In this document: piece by piece, positions 1-36,703 of the stretch | How positions within the stretch are numbered: the first letter of the stretch is position 1 | Layout: every line of letters starts with the position of its first letter | From: Proteromonas lacertae | Lineage: Eukaryota | Length of the DNA stretch: 37,816 bases | Assembly (NCBI GenBank): GCA_002245135.1 | Contig: NGBS01001218.1 | Span: 1 to 37,816 of the forward strand | Reading direction: 5' to 3' | Program-made: the position numbers and the translations under genes | Notes under the pieces: model-generated | What the model was told of the DNA's origin: nothing | Database searches by the model: none | The model's input: the letters and a program-made list of their open reading frames with translations, nothing else

Positions 1-2877
1 TTACTTTTGTTGTCCTTACTGTTGCTCGGGAACAACTTCCTTCCGGCAGTTCCTTACTCATCAAAGTTATCCCTGCCAGAAGCTTATCAAGTACCGTATC
101 AAGAGAGAGTTCCCTGACTCAAACGATTATGAGAAGAGCCATTGCTTCTTTAAGCACTACAAGAACATGCAATACATCCCATTGTAATCTACTACGATAC
201 AGAGGTCTATTTCAAGAAGGTATCCCACGTTGATGCAGATGGTAATGTCTTAAACGAAAGCAAGACTGAGGAGTCCAAGAAGTCCTTCACGTATTATATA
301 GTTACCATATCCTTGTGTGGAGTAGAGTTGATGACTTCCCTTCAAGGTGCATTGAAGGCAAGAAGACAAGTCCCGATCAGAACTTAGAAGAAGAGCTAGT
401 GAGTCAGTTCCTATTGATCGGAGAGTTGATTGAGGACTATTATCGAGAGATCAATGATAAGCCAAAGGTGATGAGAGTAACTAAGGATGATCAGGCAGCT
501 TTTAATGAAGCAACTGACTGTGCCTTCTGCTGTGAGTTGTTTACCAAGGAGAACTATAAGGTAAGACATCATGATCACTTCACCAGTAAGTACATCGCAG
601 CCTTATGCAATTCCTGTAACACGCTTGCCAGATTGCTTATATGAGAATCCGGTGATAGCCCACAATGCTAAGAACTACGATCAGGCATTCATCCTACGAG
701 AGTTAGCTAAGAGATGCCAAGTAGATGTGATACCAAAGTCCGATGAGAAGTTCCTTAGCATATCAACCTTACGATTGTCCTTCATTGATAGCTACTGCTT
801 CATGTCCTCTAGCTTAGAGTCTCTTACAGAGTGCTTACATCGTCAGGCAGTCCAGTCCGGGGACTTCAAGAAGTACTTTGCCCTGGTGTTCTACGTGATG
901 AACCAGATCAAGGGATATGATGAAGAGATGATCAAGACTTACCTCATGCAGAAGAACTACTTCCCTTATGAGTATTGTGATGACTTAGCCAAGTACGATG
1001 ACCAGAGTTACCACCACAAGAAGCTTTCTACTCAGAGCTCAATATGAAAGGAATCAATGAGGAGGAGTACAACTTTGCCTGTGAAGTGTTTAAGAAGTTC
1101 AAGTGTCAGTCCTTAGGTGATTACAACATGCTTTACTTAGCCGTCGATGTTGGCATCCTAGCAAGTGTCTTTGAGAACTTCCGTAATGTCATCCTCGGAG
1201 GGTTCCAGTTAGATCCAGCCTGGTACATCTCTGGTCCTAGTTTAACATGGGATGCATTCCTCCAGCATGAACACATCAGCATCCCCTTGATCTTCGAGGA
1301 AGACATCTATGACTTCTTCATAGCTGGCCTTTACGGAGGTATCTCATCTATGGGAAGTGAAAAGTATAGCACTAGCAACAACAAGTATCAGAACAACTAC
1401 GATCCAGCGGAGCCTTCTACTTATATCATGTACAATGACTACAATAGCTTATACCCATCCACGATGTCCTCCAGCAGTTACCGTGCTGAGATTTCAAGTT
1501 CATTGCCTGGACCGATGAAATAATTCAAGAGATCCTCTCGAAGCCTTATTACGATGACATGTCTATGAAGGAGTTCAAGGAGCCAGGTAAAGGATACTTC
1601 CTCGAAGTCGATATCGAGTGCCCGAGAGAGCTTCATGATAAGTTCAAGGAGTATCCTTTGTTCCCAGAACGAAACACAATCGCTTACGATCAGCTATCAC
1701 CGACTCAGCAGGCATTAGCTCAAGAGTATGGATTGGTGCTAACAACAGAGGATGGTAAGATGGCCATGAAGGTAAAGACTGAGAAGTTGATCTGCGATCT
1801 CACCCCTAAGAAGAATTACGTAATCCATTACCAGGCACTTAAGTATGCAGTTGAACGAGGTTATAAGATACAAGGTGTCCATCGTGTGTTGGAGTTCACC
1901 GAAGAACCTCTGATGAAGACCTTTGTGGATGATATGATCCGATACCGAGTAGATGCAAAGAAGAGCAATCGTACTGCCGATAGTGATACTTATAAGCTAT
2001 TGTTGAACTCCATCTATGGTAAGAGCTGTGAGCGTAAGGAACGACGATCCAGCATTAAGATAGCCTGCTCCGAGAAGACCTTTAAAAAGTACTCTAGCAG
2101 CAACTGGTTCGATACCTTCAAGAACTTATATGAAGAAGATCCAGATCTCCGATTATGCTATTTCAATAAGTCCGCCTGCTTCATTGACATGCCTATCTTC
2201 CTCGGTACATCAATCTTATGCTTATCGAAGTTGAAGATGCAAAGGTTCTGGTATGATGTTCTCTATCCCTTGTATGGATCCTCCTTGAAGTTGCTTATGA
2301 CTGATACCGACTCCTTGCTTTATAAGTGTCAGACTGAAGACATCTATGAGATATTATGGAGCATAAGCAGTTCATGAGGATGATGGACACTGGAAATCTC
2401 AACGTTGACATCTTAAGGGATAGAGGAATCGTCTATGACAATTACAAGGACACTGGCAAGTTGAACTTATTGAAATGTGAAGAGAACAAGAATGGTAAGC
2501 TTTATACAATCACTCAGTTCGTCGGGATTAAACCAAAGATGTATGCTTACGAGAAGAGTGAAGCTTCTTCCGTCTACGTGGAATGTGATAGCCGTGCAAA
2601 GGGACTCAATAAAGCCTTAAGAGAACAGAAGAACTTTTACGTCTACTTCAAGACTCTCTTCAACATGCTACCCATGGAAGATATGAATTGTAAGACCAGG
2701 AACTTCCGTGTCCTCGATCAGCACATCTACACCGTAGAGACCACCAAGAGAGTCTTCACTCCCTTTGATGATAAGAGGTACTTTATCGATCACTTTAGAA
2801 CATTGCCTTATGGGCACTACTCAATACTACCGAAGGATCAAGAGGATGATGATGATGATTTCAATGAGTTGTGGTGA
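1..2877 (+). pseudogene. polB: Protein-primed family B DNA polymerase (Polinton/adintovirus type) with inserted endonuclease VII/HNH-like Zn domain; split by several frameshifts; 5' part lies outside the window
   Basis: Collinear motifs across consecutive frames: ExoI PIVIYYDTE (~178-204), CAFC..HHDH..CNSCN, ExoII AHNAKNYD, FIDSYCFMSSSL, KNYFPYEY, ExoIII YLAVDV, motif A DYNSLYPSTM, motif B KLLLNSIYGK, motif C TDTDS, KPKMY, C-terminal DDKRY..TLPYGHY. Confidence 0.95.
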
Positions 2878-6293: not shown

Positions 6294-6301
6294 TTAAAAA
6301 G

Positions 6302-6499: not shown

Positions 6500-6720
6500 C
6501 TAGAGTGTCCTATTTCTTTTAGTAGGAATTAACAGAGTTGACTTTTGCGAGACTTTCATCGATTGCATCGATGAAGGCCCCGTAAAGTCAACTCTGAATC
6601 TAGAAAGGGATAGACTCCTAGAAAACTCGTTAAAACTCGTTAAGCTGCCTACGGGATTCCTCCTACGGGATCTTCTTCCCTATGAGATGATGAATCCCGT
6701 TTCAAACTAAAGGTGTGGAC
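6500..6720. repeat. Imperfect palindrome plus adjacent sequence; diverged inverted copy of the 21.9-22.2 kb terminus
   Basis: CAGAGTTGACTTT..CATCGATTGCATCGATG..AAAGTCAACTCTG (6533-6596), followed by AATCTAGAAAGGGATAGACTCCTAGAAAACTCGTTA and CCTACGGGATTCCTCC, all matching the reverse complement of ~21965-22123. Confidence 0.9.
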
Positions 6721-9185: not shown

Positions 9186-9228
9186 ATTATAGAGATTTGA
9201 TTTATTTGGTTAATTGCTATAAAAAGAT

Positions 9229-10215
9229 ATAAATAAACTTTCTGAAATAGTTCTAATATTTAATGTTCTTTTAATTCTTTTAATAATAATTACAGTATGG
9301 AGAAAAAAATATTATACTAAATTGGATATGTGGTATGATTTTCTAGTAGTAAATAAGAAAAACAATAATTCTAAAATACTGTTTTATCCTTATATAGGAT
9401 GTGGATTTGCCAATAAAATACCCACATTAGCAAGTACGATTCTATTATCCATACTGTCTTATCATCCAATGTTTATAATAAATTGGGACGAAATTTTGTT
9501 CTATTTTCAAATTCCAAAAAATATATTTCTTAAATTTTACAATATCAGCTTTATAAAAACTTTTAACAAAAATAGTATAAATGTATTAAAAGAATTAAGA
9601 AATGGAATTCCTATAAGAATTTATACATATCATAGTTATGTATCATATATTTTATTATTCTATAATTTAACAAATAAAATAAAGCAAATTATGAAACAAA
9701 ATGAAGAAAAATATAGAAATATAGAAATGTTTGTTTATCAAACATTATTGATACTAACCTCAGTAATAAACAATCATATTTTACAGTTCAATAGATTCAA
9801 GAAAATATCCCACATAATAGTAGTACATATAAGAACAGGTTATTTATCAGACTTCGGAGAAAGCAATAATAGGTTCTATAACAATGGTAGTATTGATTTA
9901 TATATTAAAAATATTAACGCTGTTTTAAAGAATGATAATAAATCAAAAATTTATATAGTGTCTGATTCTACTACAACTAAAAAATATATAGAATCAGTTT
10001 ATAGGAATAATATTATAAAATTTACTATAAAAGGAAAAATATGTCATGCAAGATTTGCAATGCATAATAGTAATAAAATAAATAAATGCGTAGTTAAACT
10101 AATTGCAGAAAATTATATCCTTTCTGAATGTAATAATGTAATAGGAAGTTGTAGAAGTTCATATTTTAATTTAGCTTGCAAAAGGAAAAATGTTAAATAT
10201 TTATCAATTTATTAA
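9229..10215 (+). CDS. Alpha-1,2/1,6/O-fucosyltransferase superfamily protein; anchor is in frame upstream of the listed ORF, start codon reads ATA
   Basis: GFANKI, VVHIRTG (motif I), IYIVSDS (motif II), LSECNNVIGSCRSSY (motif III); frame open from 9223 with hydrophobic segment IVLIFNVLLILLIIITVW. Confidence 0.75.
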   Translation: MNKLSEIVLIFNVLLILLIIITVWRKKYYTKLDMWYDFLVVNKKNNNSKILFYPYIGCGFANKIPTLASTILLSILSYHPMFIINWDEILFYFQIPKNIFLKFYNISFIKTFNKNSINVLKELRNGIPIRIYTYHSYVSYILLFYNLTNKIKQIMKQNEEKYRNIEMFVYQTLLILTSVINNHILQFNRFKKISHIIVVHIRTGYLSDFGESNNRFYNNGSIDLYIKNINAVLKNDNKSKIYIVSDSTTTKKYIESVYRNNIIKFTIKGKICHARFAMHNSNKINKCVVKLIAENYILSECNNVIGSCRSSYFNLACKRKNVKYLSIY

Positions 10216-10238
10216 GAAATATTTTTACATTTTTTAAT

Positions 10239-11071
10239 TTATTTTATGTATAAATTAAAATCACTATTATTATATTTTGAATAGTGCCTATCAAAATGAG
10301 TTGAAAAGTTAAAAGATTTTGTATTATAACAGCTAAAATTAGAATTTTGTTGATAAAGCAGTATATAAAACACACTTTGATCTTGTCTGTGATTAGATCT
10401 ATTAGAGAATTTAGGAGCAATGCAATCTATATTTAAAGAACATTTGAAGAAGGATATTTTAATCCAACAACTCCTCCCGCACACATTGTTTTACTTCTAA
10501 TAATTGAATTTACATTTAAATATAATAATGTCTTTATATATGTAAATCCTTTTATAGTTGATCCTGCTCCAATTGTATAAAATGTATTTTTTTCAATTTC
10601 TTTATAAATTCTTAATAACGATCCTCGTATCAAACATCCTGCATCAAGCCATAATAATGGTTTTTTATATTTTTCATATGATAAAGAAATTATAATTGAT
10701 TTCCATGCATAAACACCTACATTTTTATTAATATTAACATGAGGAGGATAGTCAGTGTAGTTAAATTTATTATAAATTAAATCAATATTTCTCTGCTTTA
10801 TATGTAATATAGCAAAAAAACAAAGTAATTTGTTTATTTGTAGGGATGATAATCCTAAATTCCAAATAATTAAACACATGTCTTTTTCATATTTAAATAT
10901 ATTGTATATAAACAAAAGAAGTAAATGAAAATGATTTGATGAAGATCCTGTAACTAATATTTTATTTTTACTACAGGTATTTTTTAAATAGAGTTGATAA
11001 TTTACTTCATAATAATATATATATAACATCAATAACAATATCATAAAAAATGTCAAGAATGTAATACGCAT
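10239..11071 (-). pseudogene. DUF1647-like putative GT-A glycosyltransferase, frameshifted near 10440
   Basis: Anchor, VTGSSSNHF, WNLGLS, YAWKSIII, LLWLDAG in ORF 10433..11071; CIAP..NHRQDQSV continues in ORF 10239..10484. Confidence 0.7.
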
Positions 11072-11089
11072 AATATAATTATATATAAT

Positions 11090-11925
11090 TATAGATTATT
11101 GTAGGATTGATCGAAAATAATTTCTATATTATATATATAATCAATACCAAATTGTATTTCGTTGAATAATTATTTTTGTAATGAAATTATGTGCTTTTTC
11201 CAGAACCAAATTAATTTTTCTCCATTAAGTGGCAATTTAGGTAAATGAATATCTATTAGACTATTTTTATCTATTTTAGATATATTATTCGGCCATCTGG
11301 ATCTGTCAATTCTAGTGTTAAAATAATTTCTTGGACGATATACAACATTAAAATTAAATTTAGGCCAGTTTCTTATTTTATCTCTTATATATACTTCATC
11401 AAATTTTCAAAATATTTTTTTCCTTTCTTTAATTGAGTTTTAATTATTTTTGAAATAATTAGCTCTAAATTTTTACTTTTTACATCATCTTTTAGAATTT
11501 GTTTCTATATATATTTATTACCCACAATATAACACATTGCCCATCTTCCTGAATTATTTCCATATCCATATCCTTTTACACCAAATGATTTTATTGTTAA
11601 CATGTTATACTCAAAATCATCGAAATATTTCTTTGATACAGGAATCATATCAGCATCAGTTAAATAAAATAGATCATTATCTTTGGCACGTGAGCTAATT
11701 AAATATCCAAGTATCGTTAAATTTTGTCAAATATACAATAGCTCCTAGACTTATCATTATTTTTTTTATGTATAAAATATCACTACTTATATTATGATAT
11801 ACCATAATAACTATGCATTTATAACCATATAATTTCCACGCTTTAATAATAATTGGTAAATATAAAAAATAAGATAAATAACTAACAATGATAAGAAACA
11901 ATATTATGTATAATTTAATATTCAT
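11090..11925 (-). pseudogene. Fragmented putative glycosyltransferase (DxD type)
   Basis: Hydrophobic N-terminus; downstream frames give YLTDADMIPVSKKYF, DEVYIRDKIRNWPKF, RIDRSRWP; several frame breaks; left end approximate. Confidence 0.55.
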
Positions 11926-11932
11926 TATTATT

Positions 11933-12864
11933 TTATAAATACTTCCATTTACTATGATTAACTTTTCTGCTTCTATTTACATAGTAAGTAAAAGATTTAG
12001 GTATATGCAATGGATTTATATACCAATCAGAATGCATAACTGAATAAGGAGGAAGTGATATAAACATACTTCCATTAAATCTTTTAAAAATATTATTGCT
12101 TCTCCTTACTTGGAATATTGTGTCAACTGTAGCTTCTACCAATGAGTAGAATCTATTTTTCCAAAATATTTCGAAATGTGTTTTTGATACTATTTTATTT
12201 TGATCTTTAAAATGGTAATCTACAAGAGGGTAATAATTTGGTAAATTACTAACAACCATTGATGGACCTATTACATCTATCCCTTTACAATTATTAAGAA
12301 TATATATAAAATAATCCAATATATCTAGGGGAGTATATAACAAACACATATCTGGATCAGTAACAATATAGTATTTGCAAGAATGAATTTCAGTAATATT
12401 TTTAATTATATAAGGCAATTCATTATCTGCCATTTTCATCCAATCCAATGTTTTTAATTCTATATACTTTATCTTATTATTCCTAACTAAATTATGTAAA
12501 TATTTTTGAGTAGGAGCATATGTTGTAAAATGATCTAAAACTTACAAATCCAAGTTATATTCCTTTTTGAATAAAAATAGACTTTTCATTAAGACTTTTA
12601 ACGAATATAACCTATCTTTAGTTAAAATAAAAACAGGAATATATGATTTATATCTAAATTGCATATTTATAAAATTACATTTTAGTTTAGTGTATGTATT
12701 TCTATTGTGATTAAATAAATTATATTCCACTTCTTCATTATCTGAATGATCATTATTAATTTTCTTTTTATTATATAAATAATTAAACAAATTAAATAAA
12801 AGGCACATAAACACACAATTATAAAAGTCTTAATAATTAACATGTTTACATTCTTATAAAACAT
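11933..12864 (-). pseudogene. GT2/GT-A-like glycosyltransferase split over three ORFs
   Basis: Anchor (12682..12864), IPVFILTKDRLYSLKVLMKSL first beta-alpha unit (12542..12814), YYIVTDPDM DxD and VDTIF (11933..12448). Confidence 0.7.
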
Positions 12865-12868
12865 TCAA

Positions 12869-13894
12869 TTAATTATGTAAACTACAAGTTGTATTTAACT
12901 TATATGATGTGTTTATATAGTTTCTTTGTTTTATGAAGTGCAAAAAGGCAATTTCAGCTATTCTGAGTGAATGAATCATAAATGTAGTGTTTATATTGTA
13001 ATGGACTTTAGGAATATATTTATATGCTGCATATTTAAAAGATTCAAAACAGTCAAAAAAAGAAAAGTTTGCTTTTCTTGATAAAAGCCCAAATAACATA
13101 TCTTCTTCAAAGCTACATTTTATATTATATAGTTTTTTATCTATGTTACTAAGTAATTGATTTATTGATTTAGCTAAAAATATATATGACATTCCACTGG
13201 GATTTTTTTTTTTGTTATTATTTAAATTCCATATCTTACCAAGTACAAATGATATATTATGCTTCATTATTTTATTTATAGCTTTTTCTACTAACTCAAT
13301 ATTTAAATAAGTGTCAGTATCTTGTTTGATTATTATATCATAAAAATACTGATAATCTTTAACCCACATCAGAAAGTTATATGTTAACATACATAATTTA
13401 AAATAATCACAATAAAAATTAAACAATACAATATCTTTATACTTTTTCATTTCTTTATATAGTTGTTTATTGATGGTATTATTATTATGTAAACCAATAA
13501 AAAATAGTAGCTGTATATTATTATATGAATTGTATATTTTTCTAAATACATATCTGTGATAAAATAAAGATATATGACAATGAAGCGCTATTAGAATTTT
13601 TGACTTTTTTATTTTAAAAGAATGATTGTAAGTTGTTCTATTATGATAATAAATTAACGCACTATCTGTATTAATAATTTTTCTTTTAACATTATTATTA
13701 ATATATGTATATTTTCTACTGCATTTTATTGGAGCATTATCAAAACAACAAGCATTAATTAAAGATATTTCACTCATAAGCTTCATATCATCTGACAAAA
13801 CTAAATTGTTTATGAAGGTAATACATATATTATATGATATTATTATTATCATAATTACTAAATATAATAAGAAGTTTCTTTTTAATAATAACAT
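12869..13894 (-). CDS. GT31-like glycosyltransferase
   Basis: Type II anchor; LLFFIG, EMKKYKDIV..DYFKL, IIKQDTDTYLN, SGMSYIF, EEDMLFG. Confidence 0.85.
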   Translation of the reverse strand: MLLLKRNFLLYLVIMIIIISYNICITFINNLVLSDDMKLMSEISLINACCFDNAPIKCSRKYTYINNNVKRKIINTDSALIYYHNRTTYNHSFKIKKSKILIALHCHISLFYHRYVFRKIYNSYNNIQLLFFIGLHNNNTINKQLYKEMKKYKDIVLFNFYCDYFKLCMLTYNFLMWVKDYQYFYDIIIKQDTDTYLNIELVEKAINKIMKHNISFVLGKIWNLNNNKKKNPSGMSYIFLAKSINQLLSNIDKKLYNIKCSFEEDMLFGLLSRKANFSFFDCFESFKYAAYKYIPKVHYNINTTFMIHSLRIAEIAFLHFIKQRNYINTSYKLNTTCSLHN

Positions 13895-13936
13895 AAATTA
13901 CACATAAAAATTAGAAAAATTGAGAATGAAATTTAG

Positions 13937-14865
13937 ATGAATATAGTAAATATAATAATTACTCATTTTTTATTTACTATATTTATGGTTTATTTATTTA
14001 CTACAAAAAGCAACAATACCACAATAATTATCTATCTTGTATTTCCTAGTAATGGTAAAGGAGGTCCTAAATCTTTATCAACTTATATTCATAAAGCAGT
14101 AATAAAGTGGAATGAAGATAACAAACTATCAAAAACAACAAAACTATTTTATAAAGAATCAGTTAAAATAGATTTTATAAAAAGAATCACAAATAAGCAA
14201 AACACATTTGTATGGTTACAAACAGCTAGCTTTATTCATTTGTATAATAATCCTTCATATAATGGTATTTTTTCAAGAATAATATATGGTCCAAATGTTA
14301 CTCCATTAAATTGGTATAATTCAATAAATAATACATATGAAAAGTATATTTGGATATGCTTTACATTCTGTTAGAGTGAAAAAGCAAATAATGAAGAACA
14401 ATAAATGTAATTCATTTGATTATAAATACTTATATTTAAATATATGTAAAATATGCTGATAAAAATAAAAGAAATGAAGAAAATAGTTTAATAGAATATT
14501 TGAAACAGAAATATAGAATTGAAATTATTAAGTATGGTAATCATTCAAGAGAATCTATATTATCACTAGCTAATGAATCAAAATTTATTATTTATTTCTC
14601 ATTCTATGATACAGGTACACTTTCATTATTAGAAATGAAATCAATGGGAGCATGGCCGATATCTCATCAAAAAGAATTTATTGAGAAGGGATATGGAAGC
14701 TATGTTAAAGAATTGGATAGCGATATTTATAAATCATTTATAATGTTAGATAATATATATAGAACAATTTTTTCCCCTATATTGCTTGTAAATAATGTTT
14801 ATAATCGTTTAAATTGTTTAAAATTATTACAAAAATCAGTAAAATATATTAGAACTATGATATAG
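13937..14865 (+). pseudogene. GT-B fold (GT4-like) glycosyltransferase, interrupted
   Basis: Anchor, GKGGP, IIYGPN in ORF 13937..14374; FSFYDTGTLSLLEMKSMGAWP resembles the GT4 ExFGxxxxEAxxxGxP motif in ORF 14500..14865. Confidence 0.6.
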
Positions 14866-14872
14866 AAAAATT

Positions 14873-15728
14873 ATGACTTTATAAGAATATAGAAGGTATT
14901 ATTTCTAAATTCTTATTTTTTCTTATTTCTTATTATATATTAAACAGATTTATATACAATAATAAACGAAACAAATGTTCTCATTCAAACAAAGTATCAA
15001 TTAATCTACATGATTTGTTTATTTATAATTATTCAATTACATCCAATTATAATTCGTTTTCTGCAGTTATATTTTTTATAGTATCTTCTTCTCTGCATAT
15101 TAACAAAAGAAATATAATAAAGAAAACATGGGTAAATTCATGCTTACATGTTTCATGCAAATATTATTTTGTTATAGCTACTAAAGGATGTTATGAAAAT
15201 ATTAAAAAAGAAAATAATTATGATATTATTGGTATAGACATTATTGATAGTTATTATAATTTAACTATATTAACTAGTAACATATACAGATACTATATAT
15301 TATTTAACTTAAAATCAGATTTTATAATTAAAATAGATGATGATATATTCCCTAATATTCCTCTCATCTATTTGTACTCTTATTTATATATAAATAAGAA
15401 TATGATTTCCGGATACTATTATCCAAGCATGAAGGTAAATAGAAATATTAATTCTTCAGTATATTTACCTAAATCTTTGTACAAATTTAGTACATTTCCT
15501 AATTTTGTTGCTGGTGGGTTTGTTATTATTAATTCTAATTATATTATTCCCTTGTTTAAAGAATTAATGAAAGAAAGAAGAATATTATATAGAGAAGATA
15601 TGCATATGGCTATAATATATAATAAATTAAATATTAACTTTCAAAAAATTAATAAATATTATCATAGAAAACAGATTAAAATAATGTTAAGCAATAAAGT
15701 AAAAGATATATGTTGGCATGGATTTTAG
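14873..15728 (+). CDS. GT31 glycosyltransferase; start region appears damaged, so 5' coordinate is approximate
   Basis: RNIIKKTW, DII..DSYYNLT, FIIKIDDDIFPN, FPNFVAGGFVII, REDMHM, WHG; hydrophobic coding-like segment upstream of 15015. Confidence 0.85.
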
Positions 15729-16240: not shown

Positions 16241-16565
16241 ATTTTTGCATTTTCTAGAATATTCTAATATAATTTTATAGAATTTTCTTTCTATTTTTTT
16301 AAATCTAATTTACATATATTAATAAACAAACACCATTTCAATTAATGATATTAATTTAATTAATTATTTATTATATTTTAATTTTAATTATCAATCTTCT
16401 TCATCCACATCTACTACGTCAAGTTTGTTTTGTTTTAAAAGCATAATTAGCTGCTTTTTTTCATATTCTTCTTTTTCTCTTTCTTCTTTTCTTCTTTTAA
16501 CTTCTTCTTCATTATTTACTTTAGTAAAGAATCTGATTTTTTTGTTTTATTCTCTTCTTCACTTT

Positions 16566-17203
16566 TGTTGTGCGCCGTTTGTCATAGTTGGCCATTTGTC
16601 TATCAGACACTTTTAAAACTAATTAAATGTATATTCTTACTTGTCTTGATGAAAAATTGTTACTTTTATACTTACTTTGTTATATAACCTACCTCTGCAG
16701 AATACTTTTTTGTTAATATAAATAGTTTTAATATTTGCGCCGTTTGTTTTCTAGAAATTTTTAAAGCAAACTAAATGTATATTTAGTTAATATAGACTAA
16801 AATATATTAGATGAAATGATTAGAATATAATAATTATTAAATCTTTCTATATAAAAAAAGAAATGTAAAAAATAGGCTTGAGTGAGGCTTGATTCTATAT
16901 TTTCTTTTATTATTTTAAATGCTTTATGATCAACATTAAGTTGTTCTAAACATTTCAGCTAATATATTTTAGTCTATATTAACTAAATATGTATTTAGTT
17001 TGATTCATAAATTTCTAGAAAACAAACGGCGCAAATATTAAAACTATTTATATTAACAAAAAAGTATTCTGCAGAGGTAGGTCATATAACAAAGTAAGTA
17101 TAAAAGTAACAATTTTTCATCAAGACAAGTAAGAATATACATTTAGTTAGTTTTAAAAGTGTCTGATAGACAAATGGCCAACTATGACAAACGGCGCACA
17201 ACA
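16566..17203. mobile_element. Foldback/MITE element with ~250-bp TIRs and TGT..ACA termini
   Basis: TGTTGTGCGCCGTTTGTCATAGTTGGCC.. (16566 to ~16820) is the near-perfect reverse complement of ~16950-17203; spacer of ~130 bp; no TSD evident. Confidence 0.88.
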
Positions 17204-17649
17204 CATATGATATATTTCCTATTGAATAAAAAACATAGTTGTTTAAAACAAAGTATTTGTTAAGTTGATTGAAATGAATCATTCTTAATGTATACCATGT
17301 AGTTATATTAATTATTATAAATTTATATAGTATATGAATTTAGATTATTAAAATATACACTAATACCCTGAATTATATTAAAATATTTATGTAATATAAG
17401 ATTTGAATTCGATAACATTCCAAGAATATATTCATAAATCCTGCAAAAAATAATATAATAAGAAAATGAAACGTTATTTGATAAGTTAGCTGAAAATATA
17501 ACTATACTCGCTATGCAAGTAATATATAGTATATTCCTGTAATATAAAAAACAAGATAGGAGAATTGGATATATTACATATATTTGCTGCTGAAGAAATA
17601 TATACCAAAAATGTAAAACATACGATGGATTAAATTTTATAACTTTGCT

Positions 17650-17889
17650 AATATAGACTAAAATACATTAGCTGAAATGATTAGAATATAATAATGTTGA
17701 TCATAAGACATTTAAAATGAAAAAAGAAAATATAGAATCAAGCCTCACTCAAGCCTATTTTTTACATATCTTTTTTTATATAGAAAGATTTAATAATTCT
17801 TACATTCTAATCATTTCAGCTAATGTATTTATATTAACAAAAAAGTGTCTGGTAGACAAATGGCCAACTATGACAAACGACGCACTACA
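17650..17889. repeat. Internally deleted copy of the same MITE family
   Basis: Contains the inverted spacer (TAGAATCAAGCCTCACTCAAGCCTA) and the right end GACAAATGGCCAACTATGACAAACGACGCACTACA. Confidence 0.85.
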
Positions 17890-17899
17890 AGCTGGAAGC

Positions 17900-19600
17900 T
17901 TTTAAGGAATGTCATCAGTTCTCTTTTCGTTGCGTTGGTTATTCTAATCCAGTAGGTTTATCCTGATATGTAGTTCCACATTGTTAATAAGGTCTCATTC
18001 ATCGTTTATACTACATCCTTAATAGTCAACAACCTCACTGATAAAGCTGTTTACTTGATTCACAACCAGGTTGTTGAGGTTGTTGACTTTGCCTTGGACG
18101 TCTATCACTCTTGTCTGGCAGTCTCCTATCTTTCAATGTACTTCATTGACCTTGGTTAATTGAGCTGGTGAATAGAAGCTATTGACATTCCCGGTATTGA
18201 ATCCATCGATCTTGGTTCTGATAGCAGCTGCATTGTTGATAGCTGTATCGATCAGTCCTTTACGGGTATTGTTAAAGAAGCCATCCAAGTTCCTTCGGAG
18301 GTTGTCTTCTTCAGTCCTTCTAGCCACGCCGCAGGTTGCATTCACATCATTGATACTTAGAGAATGCACCTTGATCTTGATTGCATCGGTGTTGGCTAAG
18401 TCAGTGAGCTTCGTAAGGCTCTTATCATCCACCGTAGTGATGTACTTGATCATATCGTAGACGTTAACATCCCCGATGTTGAGACTCTCGCATAATGAAT
18501 TCAACAAGGTATTTAGACTATCCAATTTCTCATCCTCTGATCCCTTCAATTGATCGATTGAAGTGTTAGTGGATTCAAGGATATTGCTAACATCCTCCAT
18601 GCTCTTATACAACTCTGGTAATTGCTTCTCCGTGTACTGCTTAAGTTCATTGCTGCAAGTAGCGATATTGCTCAAGGATGTGATAGTCGTATCTCCGAAG
18701 TCTTCAGGGATCTTGTTGTTAAGCAAAGTATATAGATACATCTCTTATATCATAACCTGCCCTGGCCTTCAACAACTTTACCTACCTCCCGAGAAGTACC
18801 TTGCTTACTCTATCCACACGATGAACTTCAACTCCTTACGATTGCTAGCTGATGGATGTAGATGACTTTATCGGCGTTATGATGATTCTATTCCGATAAG
18901 ACTTATACGATGGTCAGAAGCCTCCTTTGAAGTTCACCTACTCTCCTTAGACTTCCAAGGATCTACTAATCGTCTCTCTATTCCAGATGCTCCTTTACCT
19001 TCATGGACTTCTCGGACGTGACAGACATTACCTATGATATGCTTCGTCTTCACTCTCGGTTCTAGCAGTCTACGATCACTGCTCTGGTAAGTACCTTAAT
19101 CATCTCTTGGCATCTCTTGAAGAGCTACTTGTGATCCTTACCGATACCTATCTCTTGAGCTGATGGTAACCCTTTCAAGTGACAACTCCTTCTAGTTCTT
19201 GTTCATCGTAGTTGTTGATCCTCGGTAATGTCCTAGCCTTCAATCAGATCACTACTAGTCTCAGTAATGTTGTTGTTGAAGTCAGTGGCTTTATCTATCT
19301 ATTGAGAAGCACCTTACGATCGATAGCTAATAGACTCTTGGACATCTATGCCGGTGTTGTTACTTGAGGAGTATACGATATCTCGGGTCTACTGACTTAC
19401 TTACTTACTTACTTGTGATGATTCCTAGCATCACAAGTAAGGACTACTCAGGTAAAGGATTATCGATCACACTTCCTATAGTCTGTATTGCAACTCTTTA
19501 TGTACCTACAACTACTTCACGATCTTCAGAGTCATTGATCCAAGGTTGCTATCTCGGGGTTGTTGATGTCCTTGCTATTATTGTCATCTCCGAGACTCCT
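17900..19600 (-). pseudogene. Heavily decayed large virus-like gene(s), possibly fibre/coiled-coil; longest open piece is 18133..18741
   Basis: GC-richer composition like polB; 202-aa helical heptad-like fragment; many stops, frameshifts and an (ACTT)n expansion. Confidence 0.45.
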
Positions 19601-19708
19601 TTAGTTTATTGAATTGATTACTTACCATGTCCTTGGGTTGATCATCTCCGTAAGGCTCCTTGAATTGATTATTTCTATTGTCCTCGACTATCCCAAGGTA
19701 ACATTTTG

Positions 19709-20171
19709 CTAAGTACCGACAGAGTTGTTAGAGTTGAAGATGCGTCTATTGCTGAGGTTATTGATGATTACTTTGCTGAGCGAGGAGTAGTAGTAAGTTC
19801 TATCTCTCGGGAGTTCATTGAGTTGTACTATCTGAAGCGTCTTGAGGGTACGTCTTCTCCTTGATAATAACCTATTCTGTTCTCGGCAGTCCCGACATGA
19901 CGATGAGTAATAACCTTCCTTAGGCATTTGAAATTCCTCCAAGGGCTTATCATGCTTACAAGTACGGCATACTACTTCCTTTTACTGTAGCTTCTCCATT
20001 CACTTTAAGTTGTTTCCATTGAACGGACTGCTTCCTATAATATCGCTCCATTGCCTGGTTGTTCTTGGCCCGGCATGATGGACATTGCTTATAACATCCT
20101 TTACCTCTATCCTTTGGGGTTGGGATCATAGGCTTCTTATACTTACTACAAATGGCTTCGGTATCATCCAT
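19709..20171 (-). pseudogene. Tandem zinc-ribbon protein with one frameshift
   Basis: Joining the frames at ~19980 gives CSKY..CPSCR then CRTCKHDKPLEEF..SSSCRDCR (CxxC..K...F..CxxC), a type common in DNA-virus proteins. Confidence 0.65.
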
Positions 20172-20229
20172 TGAATAACTACTTCCTTGTCGGCGTTGAA
20201 GCTTATCCAACTTCCCTGTGTTAGTCGAT

Positions 20230-21680
20230 CAGAGCTATCTTGGTTGCTCCCGTCCTTGTCATCATGGTGATCTCCTCGGTGAGCTCCTGGACAATGTAAT
20301 TAAACTTTACCTAGATGAGTTATAAAGACAATGAAGCATACCTAAGCAATGATCCCGTGGATGTTCCTTGGCTTTGTAATGAAGTCTCTTGATAGAAGTT
20401 CCATGGGAGGTTCCTTCTTGAGTTACAACTCAAGGAGGAACATCCCTTCCTTGCTAGGATAGATGATAGTTGAATGTTACCTAGTTGATTAACAAGGACG
20501 ATAAGACTTACCTTTATAAGGCTTCCGAGATTGATAACAATGATCTTCAAGGACCCTTGAGAAATTGAAGCCTACTGAAGTGATAACTAAGTTGTTGATT
20601 GTTTAAAGAGGTTCTGATAATGGTCCTTTAACTGAATGAAGATCTCCTGGTCTTGTTGTTGATCAAAGTGTAGTACCTCCCCTGATACAATCACCATTCA
20701 TGACTACGTCCGAGAGAACTCCTCCTTACGGCTATGCCTTCAGGAGGACTTCTCCCGTCCTTGTCATCATGGTGATCTCCTCGGTGAGCTCCTGGACAAT
20801 GTAATTAAACTTTACCTAGATGAGTTATAAAGACAATGAAGCATACCTTCAGAAGCATCCTGAGATTGCTCTTATCTATTCTCAAGTATCCTTGTAAGTA
20901 TTAATGATAAACTGCTAAGCTTAAATCATTTTCATTAGTTTACCTAGTTGAATTATAAAGCCATTGTAACTTACCTCTAGGAAGCTCCCGAGAATGCTTA
21001 CGATGATCTTCAAGGCCTTGAGAAAATCCAGTACTAACCAGAACTTCCAGTTGTAAAGTCACTGATTAATAGAAGTACCATTAAGGCACCTTCCCAGATA
21101 CGTCCAGCCGTGCATGACTACGTCAGGAATCTCCCATGTTGGGAGATTCCTTCCTTGCCAACACGGCTGTTCTTCTCGGGAAGGTCGTGGATGAACTTAT
21201 CTAGGAGAGTTATAAGGATGATAAACTTACCCTTTAGAAACAAACTGAGATTGCTCTTATTGATTCTCAAGTATCCTTGTAAGTATTAATGATAAACTGC
21301 TAAGCTTAAATCATTTTCATTAGTTTACCTAGTTGAATTATAAAGCCATTGTAACTTACCTCTAGGAAGCTCCCGAGAATGCTTACGATGATCTTCAAGG
21401 CCTTGAGAAAATCCAGTACTAACCAGAACCTCCAGTTGTAAAGTCACTGATTAATAGAAGTACCATTAAGGCACCTTCCCAGATGCGTCCAGCCGTGCAT
21501 GACTACGTCAGGAATCTCCCATGTTGGGAGATTCCTTCCTTGCCAACACGGCTGTTCTTCTCGGGAAGGTCTTGGATGAACTTACCTAGGAGAGTTATAA
21601 GGATGATAAAACATACCTTCAGAAGCCTTCCGAGATTGCTAATCATTATCTTCAAGGGCCTTGAGAAATCCACAACTAGC
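20230..21680. repeat. Modular subterminal repeat array: 7 copies of a TTA(C/T)CTAG-initiated unit, plus a 385-bp tandem duplication
   Basis: Unit starts at 20307, 20477, 20812, 20940, 21197, 21325, 21582; ~20860-21244 is repeated at ~21245-21629; a ~95-bp near-exact repeat at ~20248 and ~20753. Confidence 0.9.
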
Positions 21681-21990
21681 TAGAACCTCCCGTAGTTACC
21701 ATTTGGTAACTTGTTACCAATTGTAAACTCCCGGTTCCACGATTGGTTTCCACGGTTCAATTAAAAGCCCTTACAAGATCACCAGCGTAGCAAGGAGAGT
21801 CAAGAGCGTGATTAGATTCATCACCTCGAGGTAACCAACACTTCTAGATAGCTTCCAGGAGTACCCGTAGGAGATCGTCTCATAGATATGTATAGGTAGG
21901 TATAGAAATAGCTTAGAGGAGTTCCCGTAGGGAAATAGACCCCGTTGAGAAGTAGACCCTGTTGGGAGGAATCCCGTAGGAACCTTACGT

Positions 21991-22190
21991 AAACGGGACT
22001 ATGGTACAATGTGCCAGAGTTCTAACGAGTGTTCTAGGAGTCCGTCCCCTTCTAGATTCAGAGTTGACCTTTACGGGAGCTTCATCGATGCAATCGATGC
22101 AGCTCCCTTAAAAGTCAACTCTGAATCTAGAAGGGGACGGACCCCTAGAACACTCGTTAGAACTCTGTGAAAGTGTCCCAGGGTCCCATT
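21991..22190. repeat. ~200-bp imperfect palindrome (hairpin-terminus-like) at the boundary of GC-richer and AT-rich DNA
   Basis: Core 22015-22167: CAGAGTTCTAACGAGTGTTCTAGGAGTCCGTCCCCTTCTAGATTCAGAGTTGAC pairs with GTCAACTCTGAATCTAGAAGGGGACGGACCCCTAGAACACTCGTTAGAACTCTG; centre CATCGATGCAATCGATG. Confidence 0.95.
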
Positions 22191-22387
22191 TATATACTAT
22201 ATAATAATATAATATAATATATATATATATAGAATTTACATTTTAGAAATTAGAATAATAATTATAATACTAATTGAATATACATTTTTTTTTGAGTTTT
22301 TCTTGAAGATCAGTTGATATAGGAATGACTTCCACTGCCGATGAATTAGTCAATCTTATTTCGTTATCTTTATTACTATGTTAAATA

Positions 22388-22759: not shown

Positions 22760-23033
22760 AAAAGAAAGACTTCTTGGCTTGCAATGTGTTGTTGTAGAAA
22801 TCGAAGTATTTATATCTTCAATTATATTTTCTATAAATTCTGTCCATTCATGACTTGATTATAACGTTCAGCCTTACCATTTGTTTGAGAATGGTAAGGC
22901 GAGCTTGTAACTATGTTTGAGATTATATATTGACAAACTCATGTCCGTTATCAGATTGAATAATTGATGGGGCACTGAAAATTCATATATAACTTTTAAT
23001 ATTTTCTGCTGTTTCTTTAGCACATTTTGTCTT

Positions 23034-28375: not shown

Positions 28376-28643
28376 AGGGGGCCAGAGCACAGTGTGCTCT
28401 AGCCCCCTATGGTTTTTTGATTCAAAAAAATGGCCCCATATTGTTTTTTCACCATTAGAAACGTTTTTAATGCATAATAAATACATCAATCGATTTCTCT
28501 ATTTATGCTGGGCTCATATATGCCCTTAGTTTGACTTTCTGATCATAATCGAAATTTAATTTTCTTAAAAAAATTCAAAAAACAATGATAGATAGGATGG
28601 CTACCATACTGTGTGATATGACAACATATGGTGACCATCCTAT
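28376..28643. repeat. Non-coding cluster of inverted repeats
   Basis: AGGGGGCCAGAGCACA-G-TGTGCTCTAGCCCCCT (28376-28408); TTTTTTGATTCAAAAAA; ATAGGATGG..CCATA..TATGG..CCATCCTAT (28592-28643). Confidence 0.75.
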
Positions 28644-28955
28644 GTAATAAAAAAAAATGGAGTTCAAGTCAAATCTCGAAACGCATCTATTTTTCTAAGT
28701 GTTATAGTTAGAGCTAGGATTAGTTTGAATTCATAATAAATATATCAATTGATTTGTTTTCTTTTTCTCTATCTTTCTATGTATTTATTTTTTATGTTTG
28801 ACTATAATTGAAATATAATTTAACAAAAATAATTTTTGGCGTATAATTAGCTACGCATATATACATACACTTATAATATCCCCAAATAAACACTATTTTA
28901 ATTATAAATAATATTTTAATTTTTTAATGAAATTGAAATAGAATTACTGACTTAA

Positions 28956-29366
28956 TTAGCAGTCAAATATATCTATTGGTATGGCATCATCATTGTCATC
29001 ATCAAATGCTTTTCTTCTTTTCTTTGTAGGTTCATTTGTTTGAATGATTTCATTGTCTTTCTTTTCTTCTTCTTCTTTTTCTTCTTGAAGGTGTTCTTGT
29101 TCTCTATCTTCATTATTTTTAATAGTTTCCTTAATAGTTTCGATTAATGATTTCATTTTCACAATAACATCTTCTTCAACTGTTTGTTTTTCAGCTGGCT
29201 CTTCAACTGGTTCTACAACTGGTTTATCATTTGTTAATTCAACATCATCTTCTATTTCACTCTCTGTTTCAATCTCTTTTACTAAAGCTGCTACAACATT
29301 TCCCCATTCGTCATCATATTCCATATTATAACCTGTTATCATATCTCCATCCCCTAATTCTGTCAT
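28956..29366 (-). CDS. Acidic hypothetical viral protein with an NLS-like PTKKRRK
   Basis: 136-aa ORF, E/D-rich. Confidence 0.6.
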   Translation of the reverse strand: MTELGDGDMITGYNMEYDDEWGNVVAALVKEIETESEIEDDVELTNDKPVVEPVEEPAEKQTVEEDVIVKMKSLIETIKETIKNNEDREQEHLQEEKEEEEKKDNEIIQTNEPTKKRRKAFDDDNDDAIPIDIFDC

Positions 29367-29449
29367 TGTATCAGATGTTAATGTTTTTAATGAATCATAT
29401 ATGTAGTCAATTTTACGATCTATCTATATATTGATAAAACTTTTATAAA

Positions 29450-29782
29450 TTATACAATTGACTTAGGTTTTGAATTTTTATACTCCAAACAATAAATTAA
29501 TTCATTTTTAAAGTCTTTATAATAATCCACTCTAAACCTTGCATCTCTAATCCAGATGGATTTAAATCTATCCACCAGACTTTGTATATTAGGTATTAAT
29601 CTAGTGCCTTTAAAACTATATAACATAATATGATAAATATACTGGTATCTACTTAAATATCTGAAGTTTTTAGCTACATCTTGTAAATTAACCAACAAAA
29701 TGTCATATTCAGCTTCATCATGTACTACTTTTACTTTTACTCTGTAAACTACTTCTTGTTTTAAAATAATTTTGTTATTCAT
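29450..29782 (-). CDS. Hypothetical viral protein
   Basis: 110-aa ATG-started ORF with globular composition. Confidence 0.55.
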   Translation of the reverse strand: MNNKIILKQEVVYRVKVKVVHDEAEYDILLVNLQDVAKNFRYLSRYQYIYHIMLYSFKGTRLIPNIQSLVDRFKSIWIRDARFRVDYYKDFKNELIYCLEYKNSKPKSIV

Positions 29783-30189
29783 GATGATATTTCAAAAATA
29801 ATTAATAATATAACTGCCAAACTCAAACCAGTATTCAAACTTGTATATTTTTTAATATTTATATACAGGGTTAGCACACAATCTAACTATAATTTATATA
29901 TACTTACTAGGGTATATACCCATCTCAATTATATCAATATCTTATTTCAGGCAATAATTTAAATCATCTTTGATTATGAAACATATATGAAATCTAACTA
30001 TATCAATCGATTGCTTATGATATGCCATATAATAAGAAACACATCAGATTATTCATTATGTCAATGGATCGTGAGATATTATTTTTTTTAACAAACCTCA
30101 AACATTTGTATTACTAAACAAACAATAACTTTATTGATTAGACCCATAAAAATTTAATAATATATATAATAGCAAAAAATACAAAGAAT

Positions 30190-30690
30190 ATGCCTGACCA
30201 TTTAACATATAATATGCTTAGACAACCTAACGGTGAATATGCTTTTTACATTCATAGATATAGAGACAATAGAGCACATAGATGGGTTATTCAATTTCCA
30301 ATTAAAACAATGAAAATATTAAAAAGAAATAAAGTAAAGGTGTTTATATGTGGTTCACTCAGAACTAATAGAAATGATCCAGAAGTACTAGGTGATTATA
30401 GATATCATGGTGATCAATTAATGATAAACCTCAAAACCTATGGGTATGACAGAAGAGCTTCAATATTAGTAATGAATAGAAAATTAAGAAATGGAGAACA
30501 TGAGTATGCAGATGGTGATTGTATTCCTCAAAAATTTAAAAAATATGTTTTTCATCATATGAGTTATCAATGGAATGGAGGGAATTTTTATCACATACAT
30601 CCAGTTGATAGAAATGTTGCTGATGGAATTAGTAGTAGTAGTAGTAGTGATAGTAGTAGTAGTAGTAGTAGTAGTAGCGACTCTGATTAA
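30190..30690 (+). CDS. Hypothetical basic/His-rich viral protein with a poly-Ser tail
   Basis: 166-aa ORF; tail encoded by (AGT)n; TGTTTGTT at 30720-30727 downstream. Confidence 0.7.
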   Translation: MPDHLTYNMLRQPNGEYAFYIHRYRDNRAHRWVIQFPIKTMKILKRNKVKVFICGSLRTNRNDPEVLGDYRYHGDQLMINLKTYGYDRRASILVMNRKLRNGEHEYADGDCIPQKFKKYVFHHMSYQWNGGNFYHIHPVDRNVADGISSSSSSDSSSSSSSSSDSD

Positions 30691-30794
30691 ATACTTAAAA
30701 ATTCTATTATTATTATATATGTTTGTTTTTGTTTGATAAACATACTATTAATAGTTACTATATTTTAAATAATATCAATTATAAAAATCACAAC

Positions 30795-31166
30795 ATGTCT
30801 TATTATGGAGGATGGCCAAAAGGGTTTAAAATTAGTAAAGACTGGAATACATATATTCCTAAATCAGTTAATAGGAGTAAATGGAGAAAGAGCTATGATT
30901 TGTATAGAGACAAAGTAAAGAATGCACTACAAAACAAAACAAAAGTTAAATTACAATATAGACAATTAATGAAAATGTATGAACGATTATTAGCTGCTAA
31001 TCCACCTAAACAAAGAGCAAGACCAAAAGGAAGTAAAGATAGAGCAAAACGTAAACCAAGACGAGCCGGGCCACGAGCCGCGCCAAAGAATGATCCACAT
31101 CGTATAGTTGTGCATAATGGCAGGCATTATCAGTATGGTATTCCAGTTCCTAATATGGATAATTAA
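30795..31166 (+). CDS. Small basic protein, candidate virion core/DNA-condensing protein
   Basis: ATG at 30795; K/R-rich, RARPKGSKDRAKRKPRR is AT-hook-like; TGTTTGTT at 31215-31222 downstream. Confidence 0.6.
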   Translation: MSYYGGWPKGFKISKDWNTYIPKSVNRSKWRKSYDLYRDKVKNALQNKTKVKLQYRQLMKMYERLLAANPPKQRARPKGSKDRAKRKPRRAGPRAAPKNDPHRIVVHNGRHYQYGIPVPNMDN

Positions 31167-31280
31167 AGTAATTCTTTATATATATATATATTTTTTTTTA
31201 TGTAATGTTATGTGTGTTTGTTTTTTTGGTGTTTGGTACTGCTATATCCGGCGGCCACTTGACAACTTGAATTGTAATAT

Positions 31281-31351
31281 AAGTTACAACTGGCGCCAGT
31301 TGTAACTTGAATTGTGATGTATCCTACAACTTGGGCCAGTTGTAAGATACA
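31281..31351. promoter_or_regulatory. Tandem related palindromes between convergent genes
   Basis: Perfect 28-bp AAGTTACAACTGGCGCCAGTTGTAACTT (31281-31308); imperfect 34-bp TGTATCCTACAACTTGGGCCAGTTGTAAGATACA (31318-31351); function inferred only. Confidence 0.6.
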
Positions 31352-31402
31352 AGTTTAACCAAAAGAAACATAATATAATATAATATAAAAAATAAAAAAA
31401 AA

Positions 31403-31639
31403 TTAAATAGTCATTTTCCTTTGTTTAGTGATTTCAATAAGAGACTGAATATCCTTAAGTGTCTTATCATGTTCTAATCCTTTATTCATCATGGCATCTA
31501 TATTATTTCTAAGTTCTTCTATGTCTGTATTGTTTGGAATACAATTGTGTGCCTTTAAGTATTTGAAAAGAGCCAAAGCTATCATATACAATACAAATAC
31601 GAGAACTGAAAGCAAAACAGTTATTACATCAAAGTCCAT
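31403..31639 (-). CDS. Small single-pass membrane protein with coiled coil
   Basis: VITVLLSVLVFVLYMIALALF followed by a heptad-like region. Confidence 0.65.
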   Translation of the reverse strand: MDFDVITVLLSVLVFVLYMIALALFKYLKAHNCIPNNTDIEELRNNIDAMMNKGLEHDKTLKDIQSLIEITKQRKMTI

Positions 31640-31707
31640 GTGTGTTTATGAGAATCTTATATAAGAAAAACAAAATTAATCAAAGTAATGTATTTATTAT
31701 CAATAAA

Positions 31708-32313
31708 CTAACTTACAAGACATTGGTTATTATTAATATATTCATCCTTAATGGATCTTGGTGATATTGGAGATAAGTCATAATCTGTGAGATTGACATT
31801 GTCATTGTCATTTTCAAGCTTGACTTGTATTTCTTCTATTTCTTTATTACTACTATCATTAGGAGGAGGAGGAGGAGGTAATATATTAGCTTCATGATTC
31901 ATCATAATAATACTTTCTAATAATTGATGAGTTTTTTCAAAAGATGGGTTTCTTTTCTCCTTAATCTTGTTAACACACTCAAGGAACATATTAGGTGTAA
32001 TGCGCACAGTCTCATCTACATCAGAAATACCTAATCTTTGAATTAATTTCTCTTTACTCTCATCCCACCAACATCCATTTTTGAATCTATATTCCAAGTC
32101 TAATCTATACTGTTCATCGACGTATTTGAGTATATATCTGATCTCACTATAAGTTAATTCCTTTTTCTCGCCACATATCAAATTCCATAATTTATATTTG
32201 GTTGGTGCCCTCATTTTGCCATCCTTTCTAAAGCAATTAATGAGTATTTGTTTATCAGAGTTCCAAAAGTTATATGGCACTGTTCTAAATTTGTGTTCCT
32301 GATCGTTATTCAT
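31708..32313 (-). CDS. Hypothetical viral protein
   Basis: 201-aa ORF with a poly-Pro linker and acidic tail. Confidence 0.65.
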   Translation of the reverse strand: MNNDQEHKFRTVPYNFWNSDKQILINCFRKDGKMRAPTKYKLWNLICGEKKELTYSEIRYILKYVDEQYRLDLEYRFKNGCWWDESKEKLIQRLGISDVDETVRITPNMFLECVNKIKEKRNPSFEKTHQLLESIIMMNHEANILPPPPPPNDSSNKEIEEIQVKLENDNDNVNLTDYDLSPISPRSIKDEYINNNQCLVS

Positions 32314-32398
32314 TTTAAAAAAATAAAAGTGTAATTAATACTAATAATGACAATATTGACATTATTAACGAATTTATTTTCAAAATAGATTTTATCTT

Positions 32399-33358
32399 AT
32401 GTTAGTTTCGAATCATCGTGTATACTACTTAAATTCTGATATGATTGTATTATCTGATTCCATGGGTGGAGGAAACAAGTATAAGAAGACATTAAAATTG
32501 CAATCATTCGATGATGATTATACTCATGTCAGCTTATTACATGCTGTTATACCCAATTCATTCCCAACTATACAGGAAGAAACAAATGATGAGTTTTCAT
32601 TAGTATTCACATTGGGATGGAGACATGATGTTCAAGTAGATACACCAAAGTATCCAAACATCATAAAACACCTCAAAATACCAGAAGGATTCTATGATGA
32701 AACTCAGATATTAAGTATGATCAATAATTTAGTCAAAAATATGACATATGATGTTTTTGGAATAAATGATGCTGCATATAATACTGAAGGTTCACATGTG
32801 TCTATTATACAAGGAAAAGGAGATTTATTTCGTATAGACAATTTCGATGATAATCAAACATATCATATTGAGGTAGCTAATGATATGAATATTATATACT
32901 ATCAAAAAGACCCAGTATATTGGATAGAAAAATTAGAGATCATCACCAAAGATCTTAGTTACAAAATATTAGGTATACCTAAAAACAATTACTGGTGTTG
33001 TTTTAAAGAATATATTCCATCTGAAGAACCAGAGAATCAACAAGAAATTATGGTTAAGCCATTCCCATTTACTCAATTACCATTTCGTCCTTCTTTGATA
33101 TGGGTTAATTCTATATCTATTAGATTAGACATAGTGAATATTATGCAGGATTCAAATGTATTAGAAAATATACCCGTTTCAAATCCTGAGTTACCATTTA
33201 TTACATATCAGAATAATGACATATTGAATACATCGAAGAGATTTAATAATACCTATAGCAATGGTATGATCACTATTCAGATTACTCAACAAAATGGTTA
33301 TGAACTTAATCTTGATAATATTGAGTTTAATTTAGATATTGTTGTATTTAAAGTCTAA
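32399..33358 (+). CDS. Minor capsid (penton) protein, single jelly-roll type
   Basis: VSLLHAVIPNSFPTI, IPEGFYD..ILSMIN, VLENIPV, ITIQITQQNGYELNLDNIEFNLDIVVF match the PLV/Polinton penton pattern; adjacent to MCP. Confidence 0.85.
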   Translation: MLVSNHRVYYLNSDMIVLSDSMGGGNKYKKTLKLQSFDDDYTHVSLLHAVIPNSFPTIQEETNDEFSLVFTLGWRHDVQVDTPKYPNIIKHLKIPEGFYDETQILSMINNLVKNMTYDVFGINDAAYNTEGSHVSIIQGKGDLFRIDNFDDNQTYHIEVANDMNIIYYQKDPVYWIEKLEIITKDLSYKILGIPKNNYWCCFKEYIPSEEPENQQEIMVKPFPFTQLPFRPSLIWVNSISIRLDIVNIMQDSNVLENIPVSNPELPFITYQNNDILNTSKRFNNTYSNGMITIQITQQNGYELNLDNIEFNLDIVVFKV

Positions 33359-33389
33359 TTTTTTTATTTCTTTATTCTTTTGTTTTCTA

Positions 33390-34849: not shown

Positions 34850-34910
34850 AAATAATCATAATATCGATAACGGCTATATTTCTTATAATTATGTTTTTGT
34901 TATTTTTGTT

Positions 34911-36696: not shown

Positions 36697-36703
36697 ATTA
36701 TAA

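Follow-up and report, generated by a model that had tools for sequence, protein, structure and literature searches.

Hairpin-bearing subterminal repeats and a 203-nt terminal palindrome in a likely Polinton-like element of Proteromonas lacertae

The window analyzed here, 37,816 nt of Proteromonas lacertae DNA, contains a hairpin-bearing repeat array within a compositionally distinct island, placed between the last island ORF (ending at 20210) and a long terminal palindrome (Table 1). The flanking DNA encodes galactosyltransferases and two hAT transposases, genes that by themselves point to a eukaryotic and probably protist host. The palindrome, with a GC content of about 47%, lies exactly at the island edge with TA-rich DNA beyond it, and is separated from the array by 290 nt. 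No homologues were identified for the 202-aa island ORF, for which Atlas gave one weak match (0.76). The two Cys-rich ORFs, which we take to be zinc-finger-like, matched no family, and a homologue search with one of them returned none. Pfam and PHROGs searches of the island frames and the array ORFs gave nothing significant. Integrase, capsid and packaging ATPase were not detected in six-frame Pfam scans of the island, in three-frame scans of 2880-3660 or by tblastn against 36 loci. Toward the left end of the window lies a broken protein-primed family B polymerase, which showed 51% identity to P0001, the closest of 18 listed relatives.

Other elements surround the island. A complete-looking hAT transposon at 4042-6293 carries a 572-aa ORF (PF05699) and matching inverted ends, with an 8-bp target-site duplication, TTAAAAAG, at 4034-4041 and 6294-6301. 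At 16559-17210, 17644-17890 and 6296-6420 there are MITE-like sequences of one family, with inverted arms of 276 nt that are 94% complementary and with two partial copies; one copy adjoins the left edge of the island and another is located some 110 nt away from the second terminus copy. The termini at 6533-6678 and 21949-22192, inverted relative to each other, have diverged and enclose host-like genes, and between them 6822-15728 forms a dense 21%-GC cluster of glycosyltransferases and methyltransferases (three Galactosyl_T, DUF1647, Methyltransf_24). A separate AT-rich (29% GC), gene-dense block at 28900-37800 looks like a second Polinton-like virus and includes a P-loop ORF split at 34911/35134, with weak MobB and terminase matches, and ORFs at 32399-34821 that are presumably capsid-like. 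Hairpins that are GC-richer than the AT-rich DNA around them were also found at 31264-31351 (a 40-nt tandem pair of palindromes), 28376-28408 (a 15-bp stem adjoining the second hAT) and 22871-22900 (an 11-bp stem).

Table 1. Features of the repeat array, the island and the polymerase region, in window coordinates.
Feature	Position	Strand	Remarks
Protein-primed family B polymerase with endonuclease VII domain	315..2877	+	5 pieces; PF03175, E 3e-12
Second, diverged terminus copy, inverted	6533..6678	-	apex, inner arm, CCCGTAG repeats; outer arm cut short
41%-GC island	17891..22192		poor in A/T runs, within 20-28% GC DNA
Island ORF, 202 aa	18133..18741	-	
Isolated perfect 13-bp hairpin	19408..19441		left part of island; sequence unrelated to H2-H4
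Two Cys-rich ORFs with CxxC pairs	19709..20210	-	just inside the array
Hairpin-bearing repeat array	~20230-21700		homology extends to ~21700
97-nt exact duplicate of 20752-20848	20247..20343	+	left edge of array; H3 end, TCCTTG, linker, truncated core 1
Hairpin H2	20405..20446		18/20 Watson-Crick pairs; z -5.6
Core 2	20477..20560	+	unstructured 79-nt block; short CAAGG..CCTTG palindrome at end
CATGACTACGTC, hairpin H3 (20711-20757), TCCTTG	20699..20763	+	18/22 pairs; z -4.9
Core 3	20812..20894	+	
Core 4	20940..21023	+	preceded by 128-nt short unit without long hairpin
CATGACTACGTC, hairpin H4 (21125-21151), TCCTTG	21113..21157	+	perfect 12 bp; z -4.3
Core 5, hybrid	21197..21279	+	5' part core-7-like, 3' part core-3-like, clustered changes between
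Recent tandem copy of 20878-21211	21263..21596	+	period 385; contains core 6 and hairpin H5
Hairpin H5	21510-21536		12/12 pairs; identical to H4; z -4.3
Core 7 and start of its variable part	21582..21696	+	
Short subterminal CCCGTAG repeats	21864..21985	+	
Imperfect palindrome, 203 nt	21990..22192		100-nt arms, 88% complementary, 3-nt apex; z -20.8

An earlier, sequence-only reading of this DNA had described seven copies of a TTA(C/T)CTAG block, the first of them truncated, and all seven were recovered, with starts at 20307 (the truncated copy), 20477, 20812, 20940, 21197, 21325 and 21582. The six full cores show 57-100% identity in an ungapped alignment of 79 nt. The consensus written for them is loose, as the core at 20477 has TTAACAA and the core at 21197 has TACCC. 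The independent core spacings are 170, 335, 128 and 257 nt, corresponding to unit lengths of 257 nt (twice) and 335 nt and to shortened derivatives of 128 and 170 nt. Each long unit is ordered as core, short CAAGG..CCTTG palindrome, variable stretch, CATGACTACGTC, hairpin, TCCTTG, linker and next core, with CATGACTACGTC present in two of the three long-unit types. The 128-nt units have a core-terminal CCTTG that also serves as the TCCTTG of the next unit, an arrangement suggestive of a deletion between these words. All four independent core spacings are 2 modulo 3, and three of the four distances from TCCTTG to the following core (54, 51 and 45 nt) are divisible by three, the fourth being 29 nt; these patterns could be due to chance. 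Outside the array, two GTCCTTG..ATCTCC motifs at 19558-19653 resemble the array linker at 20252 and 20757 and are possibly older relics of the array unit.

Recent duplications have enlarged the array, and a crossover took place within a core. Between 20878-21211 and its tandem copy there are 4 mismatches in 334 nt. Roughly four old unit types, together with two recent duplications (the 334-nt one and the identical 97-nt one), account for the seven copies. Eighteen of the 21 differences over the 385-nt period are confined to core 5, which is likely an unequal-crossover junction.

Five stem-loops had been proposed upstream of the blocks. Four of these (H2 to H5) fold strongly, with z from -5.6 to -4.3 and none of 200 shuffles folding equally well in each case, but because H4 and H5 are identical copies within the recent tandem duplication, the independent hairpins number three. 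By the same reasoning CATGACTACGTC, correctly placed before three stems (20699, 21113 and 21498), occurs independently twice. The weak fifth hairpin at about 20231-20249 was not substantiated (z -0.35, with 68 of 200 shuffles as good), and it straddles the cut left end of the 97-nt duplicate. The 853 non-duplicated nt of the array hold three stems, while third-order Markov simulations produced none in 58 of 60 runs and one in 2 of 60 (0.03 expected). Of the 73 windows in the array, 6 had z below -3, compared with none of 180 in the polymerase region and 1 of 113 in the left island. The cores do not fold, as four of them examined on both strands (8 folds) gave z between -1.5 and +1.0. TCCTTG does follow the three different stems; it is, however, a common word in the element, since 5,990 nt of comparable DNA beyond the array contain it 11 times on the plus strand and 7 times on the minus strand, and on its own it therefore carries little weight.

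H2 and H3 look homologous, with arm-against-arm shuffle p values of 0.01 and <0.001, the two arms not being independent tests. When aligned with one gap, they have 25 of 42 arm letters in common and keep 35 of 42 Watson-Crick pairs, and they differ by 4-5 double-sided changes depending on gap placement. Neutral simulation at the same identity reached this pairing in 2 of 60,468 runs, without correction for the stretches having been picked for their pairing. The arms of H4 have no clear relationship to those of H3 (p 0.42 and 0.46), and H4 nevertheless occupies the exact slot of H3, between the 12-mer CATGACTACGTC and TCCTTG, with a different stem. The claim of conserved structure with changed sequence thus holds for H2 and H3, that is, for one sequence pair, and does not extend to the blocks themselves. 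Their wobble pairs, one G-T in H2 and one A-C in H3, show no strand bias, which in these two cases is compatible with a DNA-level role.

Across the three hairpin sequences, pairing has been maintained during divergence, by selection or by template switching. Selection had been inferred from the kept pairing, which indeed lies far above neutral simulation, but template switching can give the same pattern without selection. According to the accessible text of PMC8794818, it can create perfect stems, repair stems and yield multi-base compensatory changes. An entirely neutral history can be built on this process, in which unequal crossing-over amplifies a subterminal stretch in accordion fashion and template switching makes and keeps hairpins in GGAG/CTCC-rich sequence, leaving repeats that have no function. 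The 128-nt units that lack a long hairpin, the truncation of core 1, the six mismatches that H2 and H3 jointly carry and the clustered changes at the core 5 junction are all in line with such a history. The cores, however, have kept their 79 nt free of gaps, at 57-80% identity, whereas bases have been gained and lost between them, and three distinct stems end at one TCCTTG, two of them beginning at one 12-mer. We consider a functionless array unlikely.

An RNA-level explanation is also improbable. Here, the long unit would be a small transcription unit in which the core acts as promoter, a 165-235-nt non-coding RNA spans the variable stretch and the hairpin serves as a 3' cleavage signal like that of Mimiviridae, whose polyadenylation-signal hairpin is described in the available portion of PMC4402537 as conserved in structure and not in sequence. 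Stems of 12-20 bp at a fixed unit position with double-sided changes would suit this explanation, as would the separate 13-bp hairpin at 19408 among the island ORFs, and a TATAAA-like word at core positions 14-19 could be the promoter. That word reads TATAAA in four of the seven cores and is altered in the other three. No hairpin scoring at least 10 was found after the polymerase gene or elsewhere in 1-3650, and the cores are unfolded. In the Mimiviridae, as far as the same portion of that article goes, the hairpins end protein-coding transcripts, whereas no intact ORF ends at the hairpins here and the polymerase gene is without one. The non-coding RNA option offered in the sequence-only reading gained no support from Rfam, where three chance-level matches fell far below the gathering score, or from promoter and processing signals, since Pol III boxes A and B, TATAWAW and AATAAA are all absent. 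Scans for sigma-70 promoters and intrinsic terminators gave zero hits each, and the window contains no tRNA or tmRNA.

A coding origin of the array is still less likely. The units could be a decayed tandem protein repeat, an outcome for which the earlier account had allowed, or a row of small paralogues. They would be read either on the minus strand, where the adjacent ORFs also lie and a hydrophobic core of 26 residues results, or on the plus strand if TAA and TAG stand for Gln; the hairpins would then mark gene ends or have been added later. All five cores tested lack stops in one minus-strand frame (p 0.044), which hints weakly at a coding past and runs counter to a DNA-level role as well; mismatches by plus-strand codon position are 94/60/73 with the middle position lowest (pooled, non-independent counts), and two in-register frames score best by codon, at 0.055 and -0.004. 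Real genes of the element, however, score 0.173 +/- 0.097 per 30 codons. With core 1 and the duplicate core 6 left out, pN/pS in the best of six frames was 0.70, and 86% of 1,000 column shuffles were as good or better, while minimum changes per codon position in four cores were 18/13/13 (p 0.17-0.59). None of the independent spacings is a multiple of three, all being 2 mod 3; there is no common start codon, and the coding-strand AT skew of the island (-0.20) is missing from the array (-0.04). A profile of five pieces, translated with TAA and TAG as Gln, returned a single spurious match among 1.84 billion proteins, of 8 residues in a low-complexity repeat, and this reading was rejected. The polymerase pieces are free of in-frame TAA and TAG.

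The array is not a CRISPR, as had been stated. CRISPR arrays have near-identical repeats of 23-50 nt, unique spacers of even length and cas genes, whereas here the 79-nt cores are 57-80% alike, the spacings are 128-335 nt, the inter-core stretches are mutually homologous and no Cas family was present among 34 ORFs scanned. REP/IS200-type and Helitron-end readings were likewise dropped, with GTAG on the wrong side of the stem and CTAG 30-55 nt off, at a variable distance.

In order to identify relatives of the array, five DNA collections were searched, and none was found in them. A degenerate core pattern gave no matches in viral, metagenome and prokaryote genome contigs, the apex pattern of the palindrome gave none in viral contigs, and blastn of 20230-22200 against phages and plasmids gave no match. 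A CATGACTACGTC..TCCTTG pattern returned eight viral loci that matched the 18-nt motif alone and were rejected as chance. Among 28 fetched pPolB loci, mostly partial, none had a similar array or a long terminal palindrome. Within the literature covered, comprising titles and abstract starts with most subscription papers outside coverage, no such array is described in a Polinton.

The terminal palindrome and the mobile-element setting were absent from the sequence-only reading. Because a second, diverged and inverted terminus copy exists at 6533-6678, the palindrome is a feature of an element family and not a one-off fold-back. The island likely represents the terminal part of a Polinton-like element that became integrated. 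Bases 1-3650, which include the polymerase, have the same composition as the island, and trinucleotide correlation with the polymerase region reached 0.92 for the left island and 0.86 for the array, compared with 0.70 for the best of 17 controls (including 12 loci of similar GC). Runs of at least 4 A or T are scarce in all three segments, at 9 observed versus 37 expected in the polymerase region, 4 versus 24 in the left island and 5 versus 16 in the array, and occur at the expected level in host DNA (286 versus 283). The shortage is absent from all 36 fetched loci (lowest ratio 0.72) and could mean that a signal for termination or polyadenylation is avoided. Codon choice in the polymerase is 66:7 for AAG over AAA and 36:12 for TTC over TTT. 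On this basis, we infer that the island and the broken polymerase probably belong to one element, a link that is purely compositional and spans 14 kb. The polymerase-bearing element is partial and continues past the left end of the window. By the definition given in the accessible text of PMC12220804, Polintons encode a retroviral-type integrase, a capsid and a packaging ATPase and are bounded by terminal inverted repeats and a target-site duplication of 5-6 bp; no pair of terminal inverted repeats could be fixed, and no target-site duplication identified, for the element in the window.

Taken together, we favor a reading, with a probability of about 0.45, in which the array represents hr-like subterminal palindromic repeats of a decayed Polinton-like element that would have worked on DNA as replication-origin or enhancer sites. 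Among the options raised earlier, which included non-coding RNAs, origin or packaging iterons and a repeat-spacer-like system, an origin- or iteron-like DNA element fits the context best. The anatomy of the units, the maintained pairing and the recent duplication are observed, and the following course of events may be added to them. In replication by strand displacement, the single strand that is set free would fold; its terminal palindrome would form a priming hairpin, and each unit would present a stem-loop next to an unstructured 79-nt block that is a putative protein-binding site. Fold-back (template-switch) copying would rewrite stems in place, so that a new stem could appear between old flanks, and unequal crossing-over in the cores would alter copy number. 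It is more speculative, and we think doubtful at best, that the element represents a new Polinton-like kind combining a protein-primed polymerase with 200-nt hairpin ends in the style of parvoviruses or poxviruses and an array of cassettes, each holding an exchangeable palindrome between a constant 12-mer and a constant hexamer and each being a structured small RNA or an origin with an actively rewritten stem.

The copy in the window looks decayed, and the roles proposed for the repeats and palindrome are drawn from sequence. For most Polinton-like viruses the replication strategy is unknown, according to the available text of bioRxiv 10.64898/2026.07.28.741278. The 203-nt terminal palindrome, present twice and placed beside hr-like repeats, offers a testable end structure in a family that, with its likely protein-primed polymerase, should need no hairpin primer. 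The hairpins also provide a clean case in which apparent covariation may stem from template switching and not from selection.

Repeats known as hrs are carried by WSSV (Nimaviridae) and also by baculoviruses. In WSSV, as far as the accessible text of PMC2855118 describes them, the hrs are built of 3-8 units, each 250-300 bp long and containing an imperfect palindrome, and are proposed origins or enhancers. They have in common with the array the intergenic tandem units of about 250-300 bp in several copies, the combination of conserved and variable domains, a palindrome per unit and a variable copy number. However, the WSSV palindrome lies in the conserved center of the unit, whereas in the array the long palindrome varies and the block that is conserved has no structure. 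The WSSV hrs are moreover dispersed over nine sites in a large genome, whereas one subterminal array is seen here, in a small element. The array is therefore not a member of the hr class, and the likeness would be a functional one.

The order of features at the island end, with hairpin, repeats and first ORF, is the same as in the vaccinia inverted terminal repeats, which in the available portion of PMC8956199 comprise a mismatched terminal hairpin, tandem repeats (125/54/70-bp) and the first ORF; a title cited there ascribes the vaccinia repeats to unequal crossing-over. The vaccinia hairpins are listed there as AT-rich, in contrast to the GC content of the palindrome here. Further differences from vaccinia are the stems that the repeats here carry and the integrated state of the element, which likely uses a protein-primed polymerase.

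A further comparison is with the protist Halocafeteria seosinensis, in which endogenous virophages and one PLV subtype have terminal palindromes proposed as replication primers, according to the accessible text of bioRxiv 10.64898/2026.07.28.741278. As is likely for that of the island, these palindromes terminate Polinton-like elements integrated into a protist genome. In the same text, the palindrome illustrated is 52 nt long, compared with 203 nt here, and terminal palindromes occur preferentially with non-pPolB replication genes, whereas the element here likely has pPolB. The term 'tandem repeat' is absent from the main text of that preprint, and its supplements may describe subterminal repeats. 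Terminal palindromes in integrated virophages and PLVs are thus already known from the available text of this preprint, and the array is best read as an unusual repeat-plus-hairpin variant of viral terminal or origin repeats.
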